Part shown: positions 944-20,907 of the stretch, piece by piece
How positions within the stretch are numbered: position 1 is the first letter of the stretch
How the letters are laid out: each line of letters begins with the position of its first letter
Source of the DNA: Longivirga aurantiaca
GTDB taxonomy: Bacteria; Actinomycetota; Actinomycetes; S36-B12; CAIYMF01
NCBI RefSeq assembly: GCF_042660085.1
Contig: NZ_JBHSTI010000008.1
Location: forward strand, 900,001 to 932,000
Length of the DNA: 32,000 nt
Reading direction: 5' to 3'
Notes under the pieces: model-generated
Told to the model about the DNA's origin: nothing
Databases searched by the model: none
What the model saw: only the letters and a program-made list of their open reading frames with translations
Position numbers and translations under genes: made by a program

Positions 944-1897
944 ATGGCCGTCGTCACCATGAAGCAGCTGCTCGAGAGCGGCGTGCACTTCGGGCACCAG
1001 ACCCGCCGTTGGAACCCGAAGATGAAGCGGTTCATCTTCAACGAGCGCAACGGCATCTACATCATCGACCTGCAGCAGTCGCTGACGTACATCGACCGCG
1101 CCTACGAGTTCGTGCGCGAGACCGTGTCGCACGGCGGCTCGATCATGTTCATCGGCACCAAGCGCCAGGCGCAGGAGCCGGTAGCCCAGCAGGCGACCCG
1201 CGTGGGCATGCCCTACGTCAACCAGCGCTGGCTCGGCGGCATGCTCACCAACTTCTCGACCGTCTTCAAGCGCATCCAGCGCCTGAAGGAGCTCGAGCTC
1301 ATCGACTACGACGACGTCGCCGGCTCCGGTCTCACCAAGAAGGAGCTCCTCGTCCTGCGTCGCGAGAAGGACAAGCTGGAGAAGACCCTCGGCGGCATCC
1401 GCGACATGACGAAGGTCCCCTCCGCGGTGTGGATCGTCGACACCAACAAGGAGCACATCGCCGTCGCCGAGGCCAAGAAGCTCGGCATCCCGGTCGTGGC
1501 GATCCTCGACTCGAACTGCGACCCCGACGTCGTCGACTTCCCGATCCCCGGCAACGACGACGCCATCCGCGCCGTCGCGCTGCTCACCCGCGTGATCGCC
1601 GACGCCGTCGCCGACGGCCTCATGGCCCGCGCCGGCCGTGGCGGTGCCGTGGCTGAGGCTGCGGCCGCCGAGGGCGTCGTCGCCGTCGACGAGCCGCTGG
1701 CCGACTGGGAGACCGCGCTGCTCACGGGCGCCGACGCCGAGGCTGCCGCCCCGGCTGAGGCTGCTGCCGAGGCTCCCGCCGAGGTCGTCGCCGAGGTCGT
1801 CGCCGAGGCTCCGGCCGAGGTTGCCGCCGAGGCTCCCGCCGAGGTTGCTGCCGAGGTCGTGGCCGAGACCACCGAGGCCCCGGCCGAGCAGGCCTGA
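944..1897 (+). CDS. rpsB: 30S ribosomal protein S2 with an Ala/Glu-rich C-terminal extension
   Basis: ATG at 944 is preceded by AAGAAGGAG (925-933). [43 protein letters not shown] is the canonical S2 N-terminus. The 295 codons upstream in tracked ORF 59..1897 are Arg/Gly-rich read-through, not coding. Confidence 0.97.
1735..1891 (+). repeat. Imperfect 12-nt periodic repeat (GCCGAGGYNNNN) encoding the AEXX tail of S2
   Basis: The DNA reads gccgaggctgcc / gccgaggctccc / gccgaggtcgtc / gccgaggttgcc and so on. The protein tail is [55 protein letters not shown]. Confidence 0.8.
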
Positions 1898-1937
1898 CGA
1901 GCGCGCGGCCGACGCCGCGCGCCCCGCACGATCCGGC

Positions 1938-1978
1938 CTGCGGCCTGGGTCCGCCTCACCGGCGGACCCGGGCCGCAG
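1938..1978 (+). terminator. Strong rpsB-tsf intercistronic hairpin (possible attenuator, partial terminator or processing site)
   Basis: The arm ctgcggcctgggtccgcc (1938-1955) pairs with ggcggacccgggccgcag (1961-1978). That is 18 bp with one U-G position and the loop tcacc. A second 9-bp GC hairpin, gcgcgcggc/gccgcgcgc, lies at 1901-1922. There is no U-tract. Confidence 0.45.
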
Positions 1979-2024
1979 CCGTGAGACTCACCGATTCGAC
2001 TTCTCCAGGAAGAGAGAGCCAGTC

Positions 2025-2837
2025 ATGGCTGACGTCACTGCTGCCGACGTGAAGAAGCTCCGCGACCTCACCGGCGCGGGCATGATGGAGTGCAAGAAGG
2101 CGCTCGTCGAGAACGACGGCGACTTCGAGAAGGCCGCCGAGGCCCTGCGCGTGAAGGGTGCGGCCAAGGCCGCCGCCCGCGGCGCCGAGCGCGACGCGAG
2201 CAACGGCCTCGTCGTGACCAAGGACGGCGCCCTCGTCGAGCTCCGTGCCGAGACCGACTTCGTCGCCAAGAACGCCGACTTCCAGGCCCTCGCCGAGAAG
2301 GTCGTCGCCAAGGCCGCCGAGGTCAAGGCCGACAGCACCGAGGTCCTCGCGGCCGCCGAGCTCGACGGCAGGACCGTGGCCGAGGCCATCACCGAGCTCG
2401 CCGCCACGATCGGCGAGAAGCTCGAGCTCGGCCGCGTCGCGTTCCTGGACGGCACCGTCGCGACCTACATGCACAAGCGTGCCGCCGACCTGCCCGCGCA
2501 GGTGGGCGTCCTCGTGGCCTACGAGGGCTCGGAGGAGGCCGCCCGCTCCGCCGCGATGCAGATCGCCGCGATGCGCGCGTCGTACCTCACCCGCGACGAG
2601 GTCCCGGCCGACGTGGTCGAGACCGAGCGCCGCGTGGCCGAGGCCAAGGCCAAGGAGGAGGGCAAGCCCGAGGCTGCGCTCCCGAGGATCATCGAGGGCC
2701 GCGTCAACTCGTACTTCAAGGACAACGTCCTGCTCGAGCAGGAGTCGGTCGTCGAGGCCAAGAAGAGCGTCCAGCAGGTCCTCGACGCCGCCGGCACCTC
2801 GATCAGCCGCTTCGTGCGGTTCGAGATCGGCGCCTGA
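2025..2837 (+). CDS. tsf: Translation elongation factor Ts
   Basis: ATG at 2025. [63 protein letters not shown] matches EF-Ts. It follows rpsB in the conserved order. Confidence 0.97.
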
Positions 2838-2906
2838 CCCTCCTTCACGGTCTGCACTTGGCAGACTGACGCCGGAGAAACCGTAGAGCCGTTGGAGGCC
2901 GCTGTC

Positions 2907-3728
2907 GTGGACGGAACCACTGCCGAAGCAGGATCCACCCCGATGGCGGGCTCCAGCGTCTCCGGAGCCGTGCAGCCGTCGCTCGACGGCACGCTCGACA
3001 CCTGGCCCGGCGTGCCCGAGGGCGGCTACAGCCGCGTGCTGCTCAAGCTCTCGGGCGAGGCGTTCGCCGGCGGTGGCGCGCTCGGCGTCGACCCCGACGT
3101 CGTCCAGGCGATCGCCCGGCAGATCGCGGCCGTGGTACGCAGCGGCACCCAGGTGGCCGTGGTCATCGGCGGCGGCAACTTCTTCCGCGGCGCCCAGCTG
3201 AACGAGCGCGGCATGGACCGCTCCCGCGCCGACTACATGGGCATGCTCGGCACGGTCATGAACTGCCTCGCGCTGCAGGACTTCTGCGACCGCCAGGGCG
3301 TCGAGACCCGCGTGCAGACCTCCATCTCGATGGGCCAGGTCGCCGAGCCGTACGTGCCGCGCCGCGCCATCCGCCACCTCGAGAAGGGCCGCGTCGTCAT
3401 CTTCGGCGCGGGCCTCGGGGCGCCCTACTTCTCCACCGACACCGCTGCCGCGCAGCGGGCGCTCGAGATCGGGTGCGAGGTCGTGCTCATGGCCAAGGGC
3501 GTCGACGGCGTGTACGACGACGACCCGCGCACCAACCCCGACGCGAAGCGCTTCGAGACGCTCACCCATGCGGAGGTGCTCGCCCGCGGACTGAAGGTCG
3601 CCGACGCCACCGCCATCAGCCTGACCCAGGACAACGACCTGCCGATCATCGTGTTCAACCTGCTCGTCGAGGGCAACATCGCCCGCGCCGTGCGGGGTGA
3701 GAGGATCGGCACGCTCGTCGCCAGCTGA
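2907..3728 (+). CDS. pyrH: UMP kinase
   Basis: [16 protein letters not shown]...[13 protein letters not shown]...[17 protein letters not shown] are uridylate kinase motifs. The start is uncertain: TTG 2892, GTG 2907 (GGAGG at 2894-2898, 8-nt spacer, preferred) or ATG 2943. Confidence 0.93.
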
Positions 3729-3779
3729 CCCCAGCGCCCGCGACGACCGCCCAGGAACGAAGACGACGAGGAGCCACCC

Positions 3780-4337
3780 GTGATCGACGAGACCATGCTC
3801 GAGGCCGAGGAGAAGCTGGAGAAGGCCGTCGGGGTCGCGAAGGAGGACTTCGCGGGGATCCGCACGGGCCGTGCCACGGCCAAGATGTTCGACAAGATCA
3901 CCGCCGAGTACTACGGCTCGCAGACGCCGGTCACGCAGATGGCCGGCTTCGCCGTCCCGGAGGCGCGCCTCGTCGTCATCACGCCCTACGACAAGGGCTC
4001 GATGACCGCGATCGAGAAGGCCATCCGCGACTCCGACCTCGGCGTCAACCCCACCAACGACGGCATCGTCATCCGCGTGGCCTTCCCGCAGCTCACCGAG
4101 GAGCGCCGCCGCGACTACATCAAGGTGGCGCGCACCAAGGCAGAGGACGCCCGCATCTCGATGCGCAACATCCGTCGCCACGCCAAGGACACCCTCGACA
4201 AGCTCATGAAGGACGGCGAGGTCGGCGAGGACGAGGTCCGTCGCGCGGAGAAGTCCCTCGACGAGATCACCCACAAGTACGTCGCCCAGATCGACGAGCT
4301 CCTGAAGCACAAGGAGGCCGAGCTGCTCGAGGTCTGA
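3780..4337 (+). CDS. frr: Ribosome recycling factor
   Basis: GTG at 3780 with GAGGAG at 3768-3773. [40 protein letters not shown]...[14 protein letters not shown] is typical RRF. Confidence 0.97.
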
Positions 4338-15397: not shown

Positions 15398-15874
15398 ATG
15401 AAGGCATCGGTGGGAGACCGCATCATCATCGTCCCGCGCACGGTCGGCGGACCTGTGAGGGACGCCCGCGTGGTCGAGGTCAGGAACCCTGACGGCTCGC
15501 CGCCCTACCTCGTCGAGTGGAGCGACTCGGGCCAGCAGGCGCTGTACTTCCCGGGCTCGGACGGGCGGATCGAGCACCTCGAGGACCAGCCCGAGCAGCG
15601 CGACACCGGCGGCTACCACGTGAAGACGTGGCGGGTCACGGTGCACGTGTTCGAGCACGACCCCTCGACGGCGGCGCACGCCGTGCTGATCGCGGACTCG
15701 GGCATCCCGTTGGAGGCCAAGGGATCCGCACGCCGGGCACCGTCGGACCCCGACGTCCCCGAGATCGGCGACGAGGTGGCCGTGGCCCGGGCGCTGCGCG
15801 AGCTCGCGGACTCGCTCATGGCGACGGCGACCAAGGACATGGCCGGCGCCGCGGGCGGCGACCGCGCCTGGTGA
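15398..15874 (+). CDS. DUF1918-like / DUF1876-like two-domain protein
   Basis: ATG at 15398 after GAGGAG. The N-terminus GDRIIIVPRTVGGPVRDARVVEVRNPDGSPPYLVEWSDSGQQALYFPG is DUF1918-like (SH3-like). The C-terminus WRVTVHVFEHDPSTAAHAVLIADSG...PDVPEIGDEVAVARALRELADSL is DUF1876-like. Assignments are from memory of the family consensus. Confidence 0.6.
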   Translation: MKASVGDRIIIVPRTVGGPVRDARVVEVRNPDGSPPYLVEWSDSGQQALYFPGSDGRIEHLEDQPEQRDTGGYHVKTWRVTVHVFEHDPSTAAHAVLIADSGIPLEAKGSARRAPSDPDVPEIGDEVAVARALRELADSLMATATKDMAGAAGGDRAW

Positions 15875-15889
15875 GCGACGGCGTCCCGG

Positions 15890-16453
15890 TCAGCCGCGCG
15901 TCGTGGGGGAGAACCGGTCGCGCAGGCCCTCGACCATGCGCTTGCTCCGGTTCTCGGCGAAGCGGGCCTCGGCCCGGGCCATCTTCTTCGGGCCGTACCA
16001 GCGCCTGGCCCAGAAGGAGGTCGGCTTGGCGAGCCGGATCGCGCCGACGTACGCGAAGAAGGGCACGGGGAGCCCGATGAGCCCGGTGATGGGTTTCCCC
16101 TTGAGCATGCACAGGATGCACAGCCCGATGTGGGTGACGAGGAAGACCATGGTGAAGATGAAGCCCTGCTCCTGCGCCGCCGTGAGGTCGCCGACGGGGG
16201 AGACCCCCACGAGCAGCGCCGCGCCCACGACAATCGCGATGAGCACGGCGTCGATGGACTTCTGACCCTGCTCGGACCAGTAGACGTCCTCGAGGTGCAG
16301 CCATAGCGCGAACTCGTCGAGCGCGAGGGCCGCGCCGATGCCGAACAGCGCACCCAGCACCTCGGCCCACGGCGACTCGGGCCGGTAGCGGAACTCGATC
16401 AGCCCGACGAGGAGCACGAGCAGGATGCCCCACACCTGGTGGTGCACGTGCAC
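15890..16453 (-). CDS. Polytopic integral membrane protein, unknown function
   Basis: About 5 TM helices (VWGILLVLLVGLIEF, VLGALFGIGAALAL, AVLIAIVVGAALLVGV, FIFTMVFLVTHIGLCILCM, LIGLPVPFFAYVGAI) and a basic C-terminal tail. The first canonical start is GTG 16453, but the frame stays open and coding-like upstream (see findings). Confidence 0.65.
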   Translation of the reverse strand: MHVHHQVWGILLVLLVGLIEFRYRPESPWAEVLGALFGIGAALALDEFALWLHLEDVYWSEQGQKSIDAVLIAIVVGAALLVGVSPVGDLTAAQEQGFIFTMVFLVTHIGLCILCMLKGKPITGLIGLPVPFFAYVGAIRLAKPTSFWARRWYGPKKMARAEARFAENRSKRMVEGLRDRFSPTTRG

Positions 16454-16627
16454 CCCGCCGATGTGGATGTCGTTGATGAGCCCCTTCTTCGCCGGCTCGG
16501 CGGTCTCGACGACCGGCGTCGGGTTGGCCGCCTCGGCCGCGTTGCGCGCCCGGATCTTCAGCGTGACGCTGGGCGTGAAACGGGGATGCGCCGAGGGTGA
16601 CCGGGCGTCAGCGGTCCGTGACCGCTG

Positions 16628-17065
16628 TCAGCCGCCGAGCTCGGTCAGCACCTTGGCGATCCTGCGTTCGCGCGTCTCGGCGGTCTTCGCGCCCTCGACC
16701 GAGAGCACATGGCGCTTCTTGTTCGAGTTCGACAGCGCATCGAAGGCCGTCCGGGCAGCGGGGGCCTTCACCAGCGCCGCTGCCAGGTCGTCGGGTACGG
16801 CGACCTCGCGCGTCGAGGTGTCGAGCACCACCTCGACGTCCACGACGTCGCCGGCTGAGACACCTGCGCCCGCGCGGATGGCGGCGCTGACGGGCAGCAG
16901 GAAGCGGCCGCCCATCGACGCGATCGTGCTGGGGTACGAGAAGCCGTTGATGGTGACGGTCACAGCAGGCTTCTTGCCGGAGCCGAGACCCTCGACGACC
17001 TCGGGCGGCACGACGATGCCTGTCGCCGACCTGCCATGCAGGTCGACGGTCGCCTGGAACCTCAT
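16628..17065 (-). CDS. DUF1905 / YdeI-OmpD-associated family protein
   Basis: MRFQATVDLHGRSATGIVVPPEVVEGLGSGKKPAVTVTINGFSYPSTIASMGGRFLLPVSAAIR is a DUF1905 beta-barrel. The C-terminal AFDALSNSNKKRHVLSVEGAKTAETRERRI matches the YdeI-type tail. Confidence 0.7.
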   Translation of the reverse strand: MRFQATVDLHGRSATGIVVPPEVVEGLGSGKKPAVTVTINGFSYPSTIASMGGRFLLPVSAAIRAGAGVSAGDVVDVEVVLDTSTREVAVPDDLAAALVKAPAARTAFDALSNSNKKRHVLSVEGAKTAETRERRIAKVLTELGG

Positions 17066-17105
17066 GACGGCATCCCATCACGGCCGCGCGCGCACGGTTC
17101 GGCGA

Positions 17106-17429
17106 TCACGCGAGCCAGCCGTGCACCGTCCAGGCGATGCCGGCCACCGCGGCGGCGGCGATGACGGCGAGGTAGGCCAGGACGAGGCGGACGTCGCGGA
17201 GATAGCACCGGCTGCGGGTCAGCCCCGCGCGGTGCGCCCGCCAGTAGCCGGCGAGCCCGATGCTCGCGAAGACCAGCACGGCCAGGGGTCCGAAGACCCA
17301 GGCGAGCAGGGCGACCGTCGTGAAGATGCACAGCCGCAGGGGATCGAACGGGGTCGAGGGTCCGGAGGCAGCGAGGCCGGGGTCCCCGGGCAGCGGGCGT
17401 CCCGGGACGCCCGCAGGACTGGTGGTCAT
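17106..17429 (-). CDS. Small (107 aa) three-TM membrane protein, last gene of the fused cassette
   Basis: ATG at 17429 overlaps the radical-SAM stop (ATGA, 17426-17429). MTTSPAGVPGRPLPGDPGLAASGPSTPFDPLRLCIFTTVALLAWVFGPLAVLVFASIGLAGYWRAHRAG...VLAYLAVIAAAAVAGIAWTV. The tracked ORF extension to 17966 is an out-of-frame shadow of the radical-SAM gene. Confidence 0.6.
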   Translation of the reverse strand: MTTSPAGVPGRPLPGDPGLAASGPSTPFDPLRLCIFTTVALLAWVFGPLAVLVFASIGLAGYWRAHRAGLTRSRCYLRDVRLVLAYLAVIAAAAVAGIAWTVHGWLA

Positions 17430-19015
17430 GTCGTCCTCCGTCCGGCCGACAGCGACAGCCGCTGGGCCGAGAGCGCCGGCCACGCCTGGACGGCGCAGAA
17501 CGGGGCGCACTGGTCCCCCTCGTCGCCCCGCGTGCCGACGTGCACGCAGCACTGGGTCAGTCGCTCCTCGATCATCGTGTGGCGGTCCATGAACGGCTTC
17601 ACGGTGATGCGCACGACCCGCTCGCCGAGCATCCGGCGCAGATCCTGCCGTCGCCCGGGGAGACCGGCGGCGGCCGCCATCCTGAGCAGCGAGGAGATCC
17701 CGAGGTCGCACGCCTCGCACACGTCGCGCCAGAGCGCGCCGACGTCGGGGTGGGAGAGGCTGCTCTGCTCGCTGAGCAGGCCGAGCAGCGACTCCTTGAC
17801 GGCCGCCTGGAGCTCCTGGGGGAGCTCGCGGTCGGCGATGCGGTTGGCCACGAGGCCGAGGTGCTCCTTGAGCCGCTCCTCGCCCACCATCGCGACGAGC
17901 GACTTCCACTCGCCACCGTCGGTGCGCAGCAGGTACCCGACGCTGCAGCAGTGCGGGTGCGAGCACGGCAGCGCCGTGAGGTCGTGCCAGGTGACGACGC
18001 CACCCGTCTGGGGCCCGAGCCGGGCGAGGACCCCGGTGTGGGTGAGGCGCTCGGTCGGGTCGACGTCGTGCGACCTGCCCGACCCGAACACCGGCTGGAT
18101 CGAGACGCCGCCGACGAACGGCGTCGCGAGCGCGAGCATCACGACGTCGCCGATCTCGTCGTCGTTCACCCCGAGCGTCGCGGTCATGGTCAGCGTCGTG
18201 AACACCTCGGCCGAGGACAGCCGCTGCAGCGCGAGCCTCTTGATCTGGCGCAGGTCGCCACCCCGGTGGTGGCGCGACGACTCCTCGCGCAGCCCGTCGA
18301 ACTGGAGGTAGACCTCGACGCGCTCCCGGTGCCGCCGGAGCAGCCCGAGCAGGGCGTCGTCGCGGGAGACCTCGACGCCGTTGGTGTTGAGGAGGATGCG
18401 CACGACGTTGCGCGACACGAGCTCGTCGAGCAGGCGCGGCAGCTCCGGGTGCAGCGTGGGCTCGCCCCCGCTGATCATCACGACGTCGAGCCGTCCGTTC
18501 TCACGCGCCAGCCGCTGGTCGACGTTGGCGAGGACGTCCTCGACGGGGACGACGCCGGAGAGCAGGGGCGAGGCGTCGGTGAAGCAGGTCGGGCAGCGGA
18601 GGTTGCAGCCCTCGATGACGTCCTCGAGGAGGATGCACGTGTGCTGCGTCTGCATCTCGCCGAGGCCGCGCAGGTAGGCGCCGGGCACCGCGTCGTAGTT
18701 GCCCGGCGAGTCGGGGACGTGCCACTTCGTGGGCGCCGTCCACTGCTCGAGGTAGGTGAGGATCCCGGGATCCTCGTCGTACAGCGTGCGGACGAACCCG
18801 TGCACGGGGCAGCCGCGCTCGAGCCACACCCGCCCGTCGCGCTCGGCCAGCCAGCCGGAGAGGCGTCGTACCTCCGCCAGCGGCTGGCCGTCCTGCTCGA
18901 CGTGGCAGTGCGGGCAGAACGCGACGACGTAGCGGCGCACGCGGTCGCCGCGCAGCGGCATGCCCTCGCCCCACGTCAGCTGCACGCTCGTGGACGTGCT
19001 GGTGTCGAGAGCCAT
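17426..19015 (-). CDS. Radical SAM enzyme with N-terminal zinc ribbon and Cys-rich C-terminus (MJ0619/Tes-like architecture)
   Basis: ATG at 19015 shares one nucleotide with the upstream stop (TGATG). Motifs: CPHC...CPVH zinc ribbon; CNLRCPTC radical-SAM cluster motif; ISGGEPTL; C-terminal CSHPHCC and CCVHVGTRGDEGDQCAPFC. Confidence 0.85.
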   Translation of the reverse strand: MALDTSTSTSVQLTWGEGMPLRGDRVRRYVVAFCPHCHVEQDGQPLAEVRRLSGWLAERDGRVWLERGCPVHGFVRTLYDEDPGILTYLEQWTAPTKWHVPDSPGNYDAVPGAYLRGLGEMQTQHTCILLEDVIEGCNLRCPTCFTDASPLLSGVVPVEDVLANVDQRLARENGRLDVVMISGGEPTLHPELPRLLDELVSRNVVRILLNTNGVEVSRDDALLGLLRRHRERVEVYLQFDGLREESSRHHRGGDLRQIKRLALQRLSSAEVFTTLTMTATLGVNDDEIGDVVMLALATPFVGGVSIQPVFGSGRSHDVDPTERLTHTGVLARLGPQTGGVVTWHDLTALPCSHPHCCSVGYLLRTDGGEWKSLVAMVGEERLKEHLGLVANRIADRELPQELQAAVKESLLGLLSEQSSLSHPDVGALWRDVCEACDLGISSLLRMAAAAGLPGRRQDLRRMLGERVVRITVKPFMDRHTMIEERLTQCCVHVGTRGDEGDQCAPFCAVQAWPALSAQRLSLSAGRRTT

Positions 19016-19413
19016 CACGCAGTCCCGGCGCTGTTGATGAGCGCGACGCAGACTCCGGCGAACACGATCAGCCCGATGCCGCACCCGATCACGATGCCCA
19101 TCCAGATGCTGCGCGTGCGCACCTCCGTGGCCCGGGCGGTCATGATCCCGGCGATGATCAGCATGGCCGGCACGGCCACGACGGTAAGGCTCGCGAGAGC
19201 TGCGAGCACGGTGGTGATGACCGCGCTCCACGCGACCGTGGCTGTGTCGTAGCGCCGCTCGCCAGGCCCGGCCGAGGGCGCTGGAGGCAGCGGAGGTGCA
19301 GGCGGCGGCGGGGACGCCGCTGCCTCGTCGCCCGCCTCGGACGGCGGCGGCACGGCGGCCTCCTCCGGCGGCCGGTCGTCGTCGGGGCTCGTCGGGATCG
19401 TGGGGTCGCTCAT
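19015..19413 (-). CDS. Small (132 aa) membrane protein with an acidic Pro-rich N-terminus and a Cys-containing C-terminal TM region
   Basis: ATG at 19413 overlaps the Lgt-like stop (ATGA, 19410-19413). MSDPTIPTSPDDDRPPEEAAVPPPSEAGDEAAASPPPPAPPLPPAPSAGPGERRYDTATVAWSAVITTVLAALASLTVVAVPAMLIIAGIMTARATEVRTRSIWMGIVIGCGIGLIVFAGVCVALINSAGTA. Confidence 0.65.
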   Translation of the reverse strand: MSDPTIPTSPDDDRPPEEAAVPPPSEAGDEAAASPPPPAPPLPPAPSAGPGERRYDTATVAWSAVITTVLAALASLTVVAVPAMLIIAGIMTARATEVRTRSIWMGIVIGCGIGLIVFAGVCVALINSAGTA

Positions 19414-20222
19414 GTCGTCTCCCTCGTCGGCACGGTCAGGGTGGGCAGGATCCGGTCGTAGGCGCCCGCCCGCCAGCCGCGGTGAAGGCGGAGGGCGAGC
19501 AGCGGTGAGAGCACCAGGATGAAGACCTGGGATCGGGTGAGGCCGAGGAGGTCCGGCGGGTTGGCCCGCGTGAACTCGACGCCGAAGCGGAACAGGGCGT
19601 ACGCCGCGATGAACAGCACGAAGGTCTCGCCGGGCGCCTCGATGCGGTCGCGGACCGCCCGCAGCGCGAGGAAGGCGAGGACCAGGAAGGCGATCTCGTA
19701 CAGGAACGACGGGTGCATCGGCACCCCGGCGAGGCAGCCCGGGCACTCCGGGATGCTCGCCGCGACGGCCGGGTCGACGGTGATCCCCCAGGGGAGCGAC
19801 GTCGGTCGGCCCGGAGCCTCGGCGAGCAGGCAGCCGATGCGGCCCACGGCCAGGCCGACCGCCACGGCCGGTGCGAAGAGGTCGCCGGTGCGACCGGAGT
19901 AGCCGCCCACCCGTTTGCCGACCAGTGCCCCGACGTAGGCGCCGGTGAGGCCGCCGAGGATGCTGCGCCCGCCCTCGCTCCACGCCCACGCGAGCACGCC
20001 GCCGCCGTCCTGCGTCGCGGCGTCGAGGATGCCGGCGAGGCGCGCTCCGAGCGCGCCTCCGACGACGATGCCGGCCACGACCGGGATGAGCCGCTCGTCC
20101 CACATGCGGCGACGGCGTGTCTCGAGCAGGAAGACGGCCAGGCCCGCGAGGAAGCCGAGGCCGACGAAGAACTCGTGGCTGGGCACGGACAGCCCGCCGA
20201 GAGTGAAGAGCGTAGGGTGCAC
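19410..20222 (-). CDS. Prolipoprotein diacylglyceryl transferase (Lgt) family protein, probable paralog
   Basis: GTG at 20222 preceded by GGGAGGGGGAGG. Lgt-family motifs are present: GLSVPSHEFFVGLGFLAG, GRSILGGLTGAY, LAVGRIGCLLAEAPGRPTSLPWGI, HPSFLYE and FRFGVEFTR. The product is polytopic. Confidence 0.8.
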   Translation of the reverse strand: MHPTLFTLGGLSVPSHEFFVGLGFLAGLAVFLLETRRRRMWDERLIPVVAGIVVGGALGARLAGILDAATQDGGGVLAWAWSEGGRSILGGLTGAYVGALVGKRVGGYSGRTGDLFAPAVAVGLAVGRIGCLLAEAPGRPTSLPWGITVDPAVAASIPECPGCLAGVPMHPSFLYEIAFLVLAFLALRAVRDRIEAPGETFVLFIAAYALFRFGVEFTRANPPDLLGLTRSQVFILVLSPLLALRLHRGWRAGAYDRILPTLTVPTRETT

Positions 20223-20311
20223 GTCCTCCCCCTCCCGCGGGCGTCCCCGGTGCACTACGTCGTACGGTAGCCAAAGGGGCGGCCCGAAGAGCGCCCTCCG
20301 GGTAGGTCGCC

Positions 20312-20842
20312 ATGGTCGTCGTCGGCATCGTCGTCATGATCTGGTGCGCCCTGCGCATCGCCGAGCACGTCCTGTCCGTCCTCGACACGGTCGTCCTGCG
20401 CGAGGAGGGCGCGGTCGAGGCGTGCTCCCGCCAGCACGTGCCCCTGCTGCTGGCCAACCTCGCCGTGCCCGCCCTGGTGCTCGCCGCCTGCTGGCTGGCC
20501 GTGCGCAGGGGGGAGCCGGTCACGGTCGGTCCCGCAACCTGGGCCTGGCTCGCCGTGCTCGTCGTTGCCGAGTGCGTGCACTGGTGGGCCATCGCCACGC
20601 TCGGCCGCCGGTGGACCACGGGGGTGCTGGTGCTGCCCGGAGAGGCGCCGGTGGTCCGAGGGCCCTACCGGTGGCTGCGGCACCCCGGCTACGCCGCCGG
20701 CGTGACGTCAGCCGTGGCGCTGCCCCTCGTGGCAGGAGCCTGGGTCGTGGCGGCACCGGTCGCGGTGATGTTCGCGGTCGTCGTCGTACTGCGCGTGCGG
20801 TGCGAGGACCGCGCCTGGCTCGACGTGGGCGCCGCGGCCTGA
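20312..20842 (+). CDS. ICMT/PEMT-family integral membrane methyltransferase
   Basis: 176 aa, 4-5 TM. VVRGPYRWLRHPGYAAG followed by RCEDRAWL matches the isoprenylcysteine carboxyl / phospholipid methyltransferase core (RHPxY...E). It is divergent from the Lgt-like gene across 89 bp. Confidence 0.75.
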   Translation: MVVVGIVVMIWCALRIAEHVLSVLDTVVLREEGAVEACSRQHVPLLLANLAVPALVLAACWLAVRRGEPVTVGPATWAWLAVLVVAECVHWWAIATLGRRWTTGVLVLPGEAPVVRGPYRWLRHPGYAAGVTSAVALPLVAGAWVVAAPVAVMFAVVVVLRVRCEDRAWLDVGAAA

Positions 20843-20907
20843 CGCTCGGCCTGCGCCGTCCCCGGTCCGTCCCCGCGAGCCCATGCGTCCGTGGGGGTCG
20901 GTGGGGC

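Follow-up and report, generated by a model that had tools for sequence, protein, structure and literature searches.

What is the role of a small membrane protein whose gene is wedged between a paralog of the lipid transferase Lgt and a radical S-adenosylmethionine (SAM) enzyme, and which of its cysteines could serve as a lipid acceptor? The question is raised by a 32,000-nucleotide stretch of the Longivirga aurantiaca genome (contig NZ_JBHSTI010000008.1, positions 900,001 to 932,000; hereafter the window), in which the minus strand encodes, from position 19413 to 19015, a small membrane protein of 132 amino acids followed by a stop codon. An earlier note on this DNA had suggested that the product might be a dedicated substrate of the adjacent Lgt paralog, with a lipobox-like IVIGC motif (Cys111) near its C-terminus, or equally a structural subunit. 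This idea survives in part: a cysteine-bearing partner is indeed present in the right neighbourhood, but neither the cysteine that was chosen nor the lipobox label held. The invariant residue is instead a second cysteine, Cys122. Judged from related loci, the small protein (the Cys-tail protein) belongs as a constant third member to a conserved cassette, the others being the Lgt paralog, a radical SAM enzyme resembling Tes, and a mini-protein with two cysteines.

The small gene and its product

The gene call is supported by its translation, by overlaps with both neighbours, by the G+C content at third codon positions (GC3), and by homologs. The start codon (ATG, 19413-19411) overlaps the stop codon of the Lgt-like gene (TGA, 19412-19410) as ATGA, and the stop codon (TGA, 19017-19015) shares a base with the start codon of the radical SAM gene (ATG, 19015-19013) as TGATG, in agreement with the earlier description of a gene sandwiched by overlapping codons between the two enzyme genes. 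In frame, the GC3 of the open reading frame (ORF) is 0.895, rising to 0.94 in its C-terminal, hydrophobic half, and public collections contain an identical 132-amino-acid protein as a gene call; the Mycolicibacterium version carries the label "hypothetical protein." The small ORF is a real gene, translationally coupled to both neighbours. A promoter and terminator scan of positions 15700 to 20900 gave nothing useful.

The three-part layout previously read from the translation, namely, an acidic and Pro-rich N-terminal half, a hydrophobic segment, and a Cys-bearing tail, was borne out by composition, as residues 1 to 55 contain 18 Pro and 10 acidic (Asp or Glu) residues with only 3 Lys or Arg. 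An AlphaFold2 model built on a 57-sequence alignment (mean confidence, pLDDT, 74.7) leaves residues 1 to 56 without structure and places helices at residues 57-76, 80-94, and 98-130, with confidence peaking at residues 121 to 130. Within the last helix lies a hydrophobic stretch of 24 residues (103-126), of which Cys111 is the 9th and Cys122 the 20th.

Among Pfam and NCBIfam models, the sole match of the 132-amino-acid protein was SepX/GlpR (NF050099; 20.6 bits against a cut-off of 150). This identity was rejected, the match being composition-driven and covering only the Pro-rich and transmembrane region. Seven homologs of the small protein likewise gave no significant Pfam or NCBIfam match. 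A paralog in the same genome was also considered and dismissed, the next profile match (E value, 1e-6) being a different Pro-rich membrane protein that has no G-x-C tail. This unrelated protein of 146 amino acids, with a similar Pro-rich head, is encoded at C8:2162744-2163070 (L103, 1956-2396) and was the only other profile match in the genome; a match at this E value to an unrelated protein indicates that composition alone yields matches for such Pro-rich proteins.

Conservation of the two cysteines

The hydrophobic tail contains two cysteines: Cys111 of the IVIGC motif (codon at 19081-19083, minus strand), located in the middle of the last helix, and Cys122 of a G-V-C motif (codon at 19048-19050, minus strand), located 10 residues before the C-terminus. 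To compare them across lineages, we drew on a pattern scan in which each species was represented by a single genome and which returned 384 relatives of the radical SAM protein; 80 loci, 66 to 80% identical in this protein, were kept. In 57 of these loci, the ORF with the best coding signal in the interval from the Lgt-like to the radical SAM gene was that of the small membrane protein, and in others it had moved upstream or downstream, so that a comparable small ORF does exist in syntenic cassettes, as the earlier note would have it. The 57 proteins defined by this position were aligned with MAFFT (alignment A2), while relocated small ORFs found by motif search were left out of the invariance count.

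The alignment check that had been suggested for both cysteines separated them clearly. Met1 and Cys122 were the only invariant columns (Cys122 in 57/57), and G106 and G120 were conserved in at least 90% of the proteins; in the C-terminal alignment, Cys122 was present in 65 of 68 sequences. The Cys111 column, however, was occupied by Trp in 32 of the 57 sequences and by Cys in only 4, the remainder having Leu (4), Ala (4), Ile (4), Val, and others, and even within the genus, three of six loci have Val, Ala, or Leu at this position. Clustering the 57 proteins gives 32 groups at 50% identity and 17 at 40%, and they range in length, with their homologs, from 83 to 283 amino acids. Their median pairwise identity is 27%; the corresponding values are 54% in the Lgt-like protein and 56% in a 107-amino-acid protein encoded downstream.

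The tetrapeptide V-I-G-C at Cys111 does fit the relaxed lipobox pattern [LVI][ASTVI][GAS]C literally, as had been claimed, and it does so from within the C-terminal helix. Based on composition, the chance of such a triplet before a cysteine here is ~8%, and the match alone is therefore not significant, because about that share of cysteines in this segment would be expected to carry a fitting triplet. At the invariant cysteine the surroundings are of another kind: Gly occupies position -2 in 63 of 65 homologs, position -1 is Val, Leu, Ala, Phe, or Thr, and the lipobox pattern occurs in 1 of 65. The IVIGC sequence at Cys111 thus looks like a lineage-specific coincidence rather than a modification site. 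For annotation more generally, a lipobox-like tetrapeptide within a hydrophobic helix is to be expected by chance and needs conservation before it is called.

Predicted membrane layout of the tail

Charge distribution around the last hydrophobic stretch was compared in 65 homologs. The 12 residues that precede it contain on average 2.7 Lys or Arg against 0.6 Asp or Glu, the tail beyond Cys122 contains on average 0.12 Lys or Arg, and a median of 20 uncharged residues separates the last charge from the cysteine. After the invariant cysteine the chain continues for a median of 10 residues (range, 6 to 19). Under the positive-inside rule, the last helix would run from the inside to the outside of the membrane, which would place Cys122 within a few residues of its outer end and Cys111 in the middle of the bilayer. 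The structural needs of the small protein seem modest: a Pro-rich, disordered head in the cytoplasm; a hairpin of helices; a cytoplasmic loop rich in Arg and Lys; and a last helix ending in G-x-C, beyond which the short uncharged remainder would lie outside the cell.

Synteny and co-occurrence of the cassette

The 80 loci are spread widely among the Actinomycetota, comprising metagenome-assembled genomes (MAGs) of the Nanopelagicales type, Nocardia, Mycolicibacterium porcinum (L051), Dactylosporangium, Janibacter, Humibacillus, and Acidimicrobiia, and thus many orders, and they also include Chloroflexota, Dormibacterota, Acidobacteriota/Blastocatellia, and an alphaproteobacterial Kiloniellales MAG. 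In nearly all loci with enough flanking sequence, the Lgt-like gene lies directly upstream of the radical SAM gene. The set of Lgt paralog, Tes-like radical SAM enzyme, and Cys-tail protein, which is encoded by overlapping genes in the window, occurs in the majority of the 80 loci, and in about 40 of the 57 loci with the small ORF in between, a 4-nucleotide overlap joins the start of this ORF to the Lgt-like stop. In loci whose two enzyme genes adjoin each other, an ORF encoding this kind of tail was found just upstream of the Lgt-like gene (L049, L062, L065, L066, L069, L080, L097, and L099), and in four further loci (L064, L084, L094, and L096) the small ORF lies between the radical SAM gene and that of the 107-amino-acid protein. 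Because the linkage survives rearrangement, the small gene appears to be functionally tied to the cassette. One copy of the small protein per cassette is the rule (66 of 80 loci).

The two enzymes are also tightly coupled in their occurrence. Among 41 related genomes, an ortholog of the radical SAM protein (74 to 80% identity) was found in 7, and the Lgt paralog was found in exactly those 7 and in none of the other 34. When all ORFs of the 80 loci were clustered, the two enzyme genes, Lgt-like and radical SAM, together with the frames antisense to them, were alone in being widely common, no other family occurred in more than 15 loci, and no Lsp-like or Lnt-like gene was linked to the cassette. 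Fusions were sought as well. No fusion of the small protein with the Lgt-like protein occurred among the 120 best word-index matches, and the longer proteins among 150 representatives, considered as candidate fusions, were set aside as they look like frame-shifted or read-through calls; two long representatives join Lgt-like and radical SAM parts without the Cys-tail segment.

Several loci show local peculiarities. In two Oscillochloris MAGs (L074 and L100), two Cys-tail ORFs flank the Lgt-like gene, and L074 also has a tandem FRFQVSG-coding repeat between cassette genes (2578-2803). In two Dactylosporangium loci (L078, 3292-3654; L067, 3401-3616), tandem coding-like repeats between the Lgt-like stop and the Cys-tail ORF widen the gap between them. 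In L033, an insertion of about 3 kb (region 950-3990) that contains a P450-like ORF (1343-2659) splits the Lgt-like gene and a Cys-tail copy from a Cys-less copy and the radical SAM gene.

Partner proteins of the cassette

The Lgt-family paralog (20222 to 19410, minus strand) has 270 amino acids when read from the GTG at 20222, which is also the length of the public gene call; an alternative in-frame GTG at 20255 would give 281 amino acids. It matches PF01790 with an E value of 3.2e-34 (118.8 bits; cut-off, 24.9) and E. coli Lgt (5AZB) with an E value of 4.6e-7, and it falls below the cut-off of the TIGR00544 equivalog model (74.7 bits against 118.9). A canonical Lgt (226 bits) is encoded elsewhere on the same contig.

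In E. coli Lgt, six residues are absolutely required (Y26, H103, R143, N146, G154, and R239), of which R143 and R239 position the phosphate of phosphatidylglycerol; the essential residues lie in a central cavity, and a cysteine thiol serves as the acceptor, attacking C3 of phosphatidylglycerol (PMC13251419). We mapped the residues of the Lgt-like protein to E. coli Lgt through the 5AZB alignment and checked their conservation in 73 cassette-linked sequences. Three replacements, Y26H (His16), H103L (Leu89), and N146C (Cys131), are each conserved in at least 90% of these sequences, and the family keeps R143 (Arg128), G154, Y235, R239 (Arg212), E243, and R246. Since the substitutions are uniform across the family, the function of the paralog seems to have been changed rather than to have decayed, and this pattern points to an active site that was re-tooled, not lost. 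The codons of Cys131 (19830-19832) and His16 (20175-20177), both on the minus strand, correspond to E. coli positions N146 and Y26, and both residues fall in the region that forms the central cavity of E. coli Lgt. It is a matter of speculation that this His/Cys pair could support a covalent intermediate.

The radical SAM enzyme (19015 to 17426, minus strand; 529 amino acids; PF04055 and PF23545) is of the Tes/GDGT-MAS/TrsS/HMPTM type, with an N-terminal zinc ribbon of the HMPTM type and C-terminal Cys clusters. Its scores lie far below the cut-offs of the TrsS model (NF045646; 181 bits against 490) and the Tes model (NF045702; 145.2 bits against 450), and it matches the GDGT-MAS structure 7TOL with an E value of 8.8e-31, the C-terminal CC...C block included. 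Models of peptide-modifying SPASM maturases match the radical SAM core only, with E values of 1e-8 or worse.

The cassette is completed by a second small membrane protein of 107 amino acids (17429 to 17106, minus strand), the start of which overlaps the stop of the radical SAM gene. By tblastn, it matches 65 loci at 45 to 78% identity, downstream of the radical SAM gene, and in these loci its Cys34 and Cys75, which lie in the motifs DPL..C and S.C.L.D.R, are both conserved in at least 90%. It belongs to no Pfam or NCBIfam family, and it evolves about two times more slowly than the Cys-tail protein.

Proposed mechanism and alternative explanations

The combination of an Lgt-like enzyme, a Tes-like enzyme, and a Cys-tail protein points to an undescribed system of protein-lipid modification. 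Our preferred explanation, which we hold tentatively and with slightly more doubt than belief, is that the small protein serves the Lgt paralog as its dedicated thiol acceptor and that the radical SAM enzyme remodels the lipid. The process would involve the following steps: (i) the Lgt paralog, with its phosphatidylglycerol-binding arginines kept and with His, Leu, and Cys at positions 26, 103, and 146, would transfer a diacylglyceryl or related lipid group onto the thiol of Cys122; (ii) this lipidation would take place at the outer-leaflet end of the last helix, and no cleavage of a signal peptide would follow; and (iii) the Tes-like radical SAM enzyme would then alter the alkyl chains of the Cys122-bound lipid, by analogy with GDGT-MAS. 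A bolder version, in which the radical SAM enzyme couples the tail of the Cys122-bound lipid to a second alkyl chain, either of the same lipid or of the opposite leaflet, and thereby generates a protein-anchored macrocyclic or membrane-spanning lipid, strikes us as improbable.

Several observations weigh against an acceptor role for Cys122. The membrane orientation is derived from charge bias only; the conserved motif, with Gly at -2 and Val, Leu, Ala, or Phe at -1, is not a lipobox; and with just 6 to 19 residues beyond the cysteine, the product would be a "lipoprotein" without a functional mature domain. The paralog has other residues at three of the six positions on which E. coli Lgt depends, and diacylglyceryl transfer may thus have been lost or changed. 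The sequences that define the invariant cysteine are also not independent, as one cluster, mostly from Dactylosporangium, holds 16 of the 57. Moreover, the second copy of the small protein in L033, which lies beside the radical SAM gene (3669-3980), has no such cysteine, and the copy beside the Lgt-like gene (954-1307) retains it. Finally, the conserved G106 and G120 and the helix-rich model also fit a packing subunit.

The last point leads to a serious rival, which we nevertheless regard as unlikely, in which the small protein and the two-Cys protein are structural subunits, membrane scaffolds that keep the soluble radical SAM enzyme next to its Lgt-like partner, the substrates of the two enzymes are free membrane lipids, and Cys122 serves for packing, a transient disulfide, or a metal contact without ever being lipidated. 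Helix packing is suggested by the conserved G106, G110, and G120 and stoichiometric production by the translational coupling, the protein is usually present in a single copy per cassette, the closest solved relative of the radical SAM enzyme (7TOL) acts on free lipids, and the 107-amino-acid protein has conserved cysteines as well. A structural subunit would, however, be expected to have more invariant residues and to diverge more slowly than is seen from the low median identity and the wide range of lengths, and an invariant cysteine at a fixed depth beyond a positively charged loop has the look of an acceptor site. In addition, transfer onto protein thiols is the only activity known for the Lgt fold (PMC13251419).

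We consider it quite improbable that the small protein is instead a direct substrate or carrier of the radical SAM enzyme, with Cys122 forming a thioether to a lipid or peptide carbon, as in sactipeptides, or acting as a transient carrier thiol, and with the Lgt-like enzyme supplying or positioning the lipid. Such a role would suit the overlap of the two genes, the weak core similarity to peptide-modifying radical SAM maturases, and the chemistry of GDGT-MAS, which couples lipid tail carbons through an intermediate with a carbon-sulfur bond (PMC13459092). The enzyme is nevertheless nearest to Tes/GDGT-MAS and not to the SPASM maturases, the charge-based topology would put Cys122 near the outer face and away from a cytoplasmic enzyme, and where the gene order varies, the small gene is often the neighbour of the Lgt-like gene and not of the radical SAM gene. 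That the Lgt paralog recognizes Cys111 within IVIGC as a lipobox cysteine is scarcely credible: the literal fit of the tetrapeptide speaks for it, and the predominance of Trp in this column, its variation within the genus, the predicted mid-bilayer depth, and the chance expectation for the triplet all speak against it.

Neighbouring genes

On the minus strand, the next gene after that of the 107-amino-acid protein encodes a DUF1905/OmdA protein. Upstream of the cassette, a methyltransferase of the ICMT/PEMT family (20312-20842, plus strand) is divergently paired with it. This pairing recurs in L034 (285-791, minus strand; 47% identity), where no Lgt-like gene is present on the 4.6-kb contig. 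As a core part of the cassette this gene was rejected, being absent from the other 78 of the 80 loci, and it is probably not a core component. ICMT enzymes act on lipidated C-terminal cysteines, and the pairing in the window and in L034 is curious in this light.

Significance of Cys122 as a possible lipid acceptor

If Cys122 is the acceptor, the cassette would represent a second, lipobox-independent route of thiol lipidation in bacteria, coupled to a radical lipid-tail chemistry that is otherwise known from archaeal tetraether synthesis. It would then also bear on the role of bacterial Tes homologs and on the reason for a second Lgt, with Y26H and N146C, in many Actinomycetota, Mycolicibacterium among them. 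A protein-anchored macrocyclic or spanning lipid, if true, would amount to a new class of bacterial protein lipidation and would explain both the bacterial Tes homologs and the mycobacterial "second Lgt."

Comparison with known systems

One point of reference is the bacterial prolipoprotein system with Lgt (5AZB/5AZC; PF01790), which the cassette resembles in the Lgt-family neighbour and in a layout reminiscent of the n-region, h-region, and Cys of a lipoprotein signal peptide, with one invariant cysteine about 20 uncharged residues past a positive stretch. In contrast to a canonical prolipoprotein, the Cys-bearing hydrophobic segment of the small protein is its last helix (98-130) and not an N-terminal signal peptide, the cysteine stands in a G-x-C motif with a bulky residue at -1 and not in a conserved lipobox, no functional mature domain follows the cysteine, and nothing suggests cleavage. 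The canonical Lgt system further differs in that the cassette has no linked Lsp-like or Lnt-like gene, and its enzyme carries the replacements Y26H, H103L, and N146C.

A likeness to the cassette enzyme may be found in MSMEG_5408, the second Lgt homolog of M. smegmatis, which has been reported to have Y26H and N146C and is described "with presumed low Lgt activity" (PMC13251419). These two reported replacements are among those of the cassette Lgt-like family, and Mycolicibacterium porcinum carries the cassette. The literature, however, treats MSMEG_5408 as a low-activity or redundant Lgt and not as part of a separate system, and MSMEG_5406 is mentioned there solely as a hypothetical protein that responds to zinc.

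In common with GDGT-MAS/Tes (M. jannaschii MJ0619; 7TOL/7TOM; NF045702), the radical SAM enzyme has the zinc ribbon, the core, and the CC...C block at the C-terminus, and it differs in being bacterial, in scoring far below the cut-off of the Tes model, and in being strictly paired with an Lgt-like enzyme and Cys-containing mini-proteins, none of which have been described for Tes. Pairs of a precursor and a radical SAM maturase for ribosomally synthesized and post-translationally modified peptides (RiPPs) are similar in having a small, fast-evolving ORF with one critical cysteine beside a radical SAM gene. Unlike in those pairs, the small protein here is integral to the membrane, an Lgt-like lipid transferase is a constant partner, and the radical SAM enzyme matches the SPASM-type maturase models over the core only and with weak E values. 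Our literature search returned no paper that links an Lgt-like gene to one for a Tes-like radical SAM enzyme, and the cassette is an undescribed variant assembled from known enzyme families.

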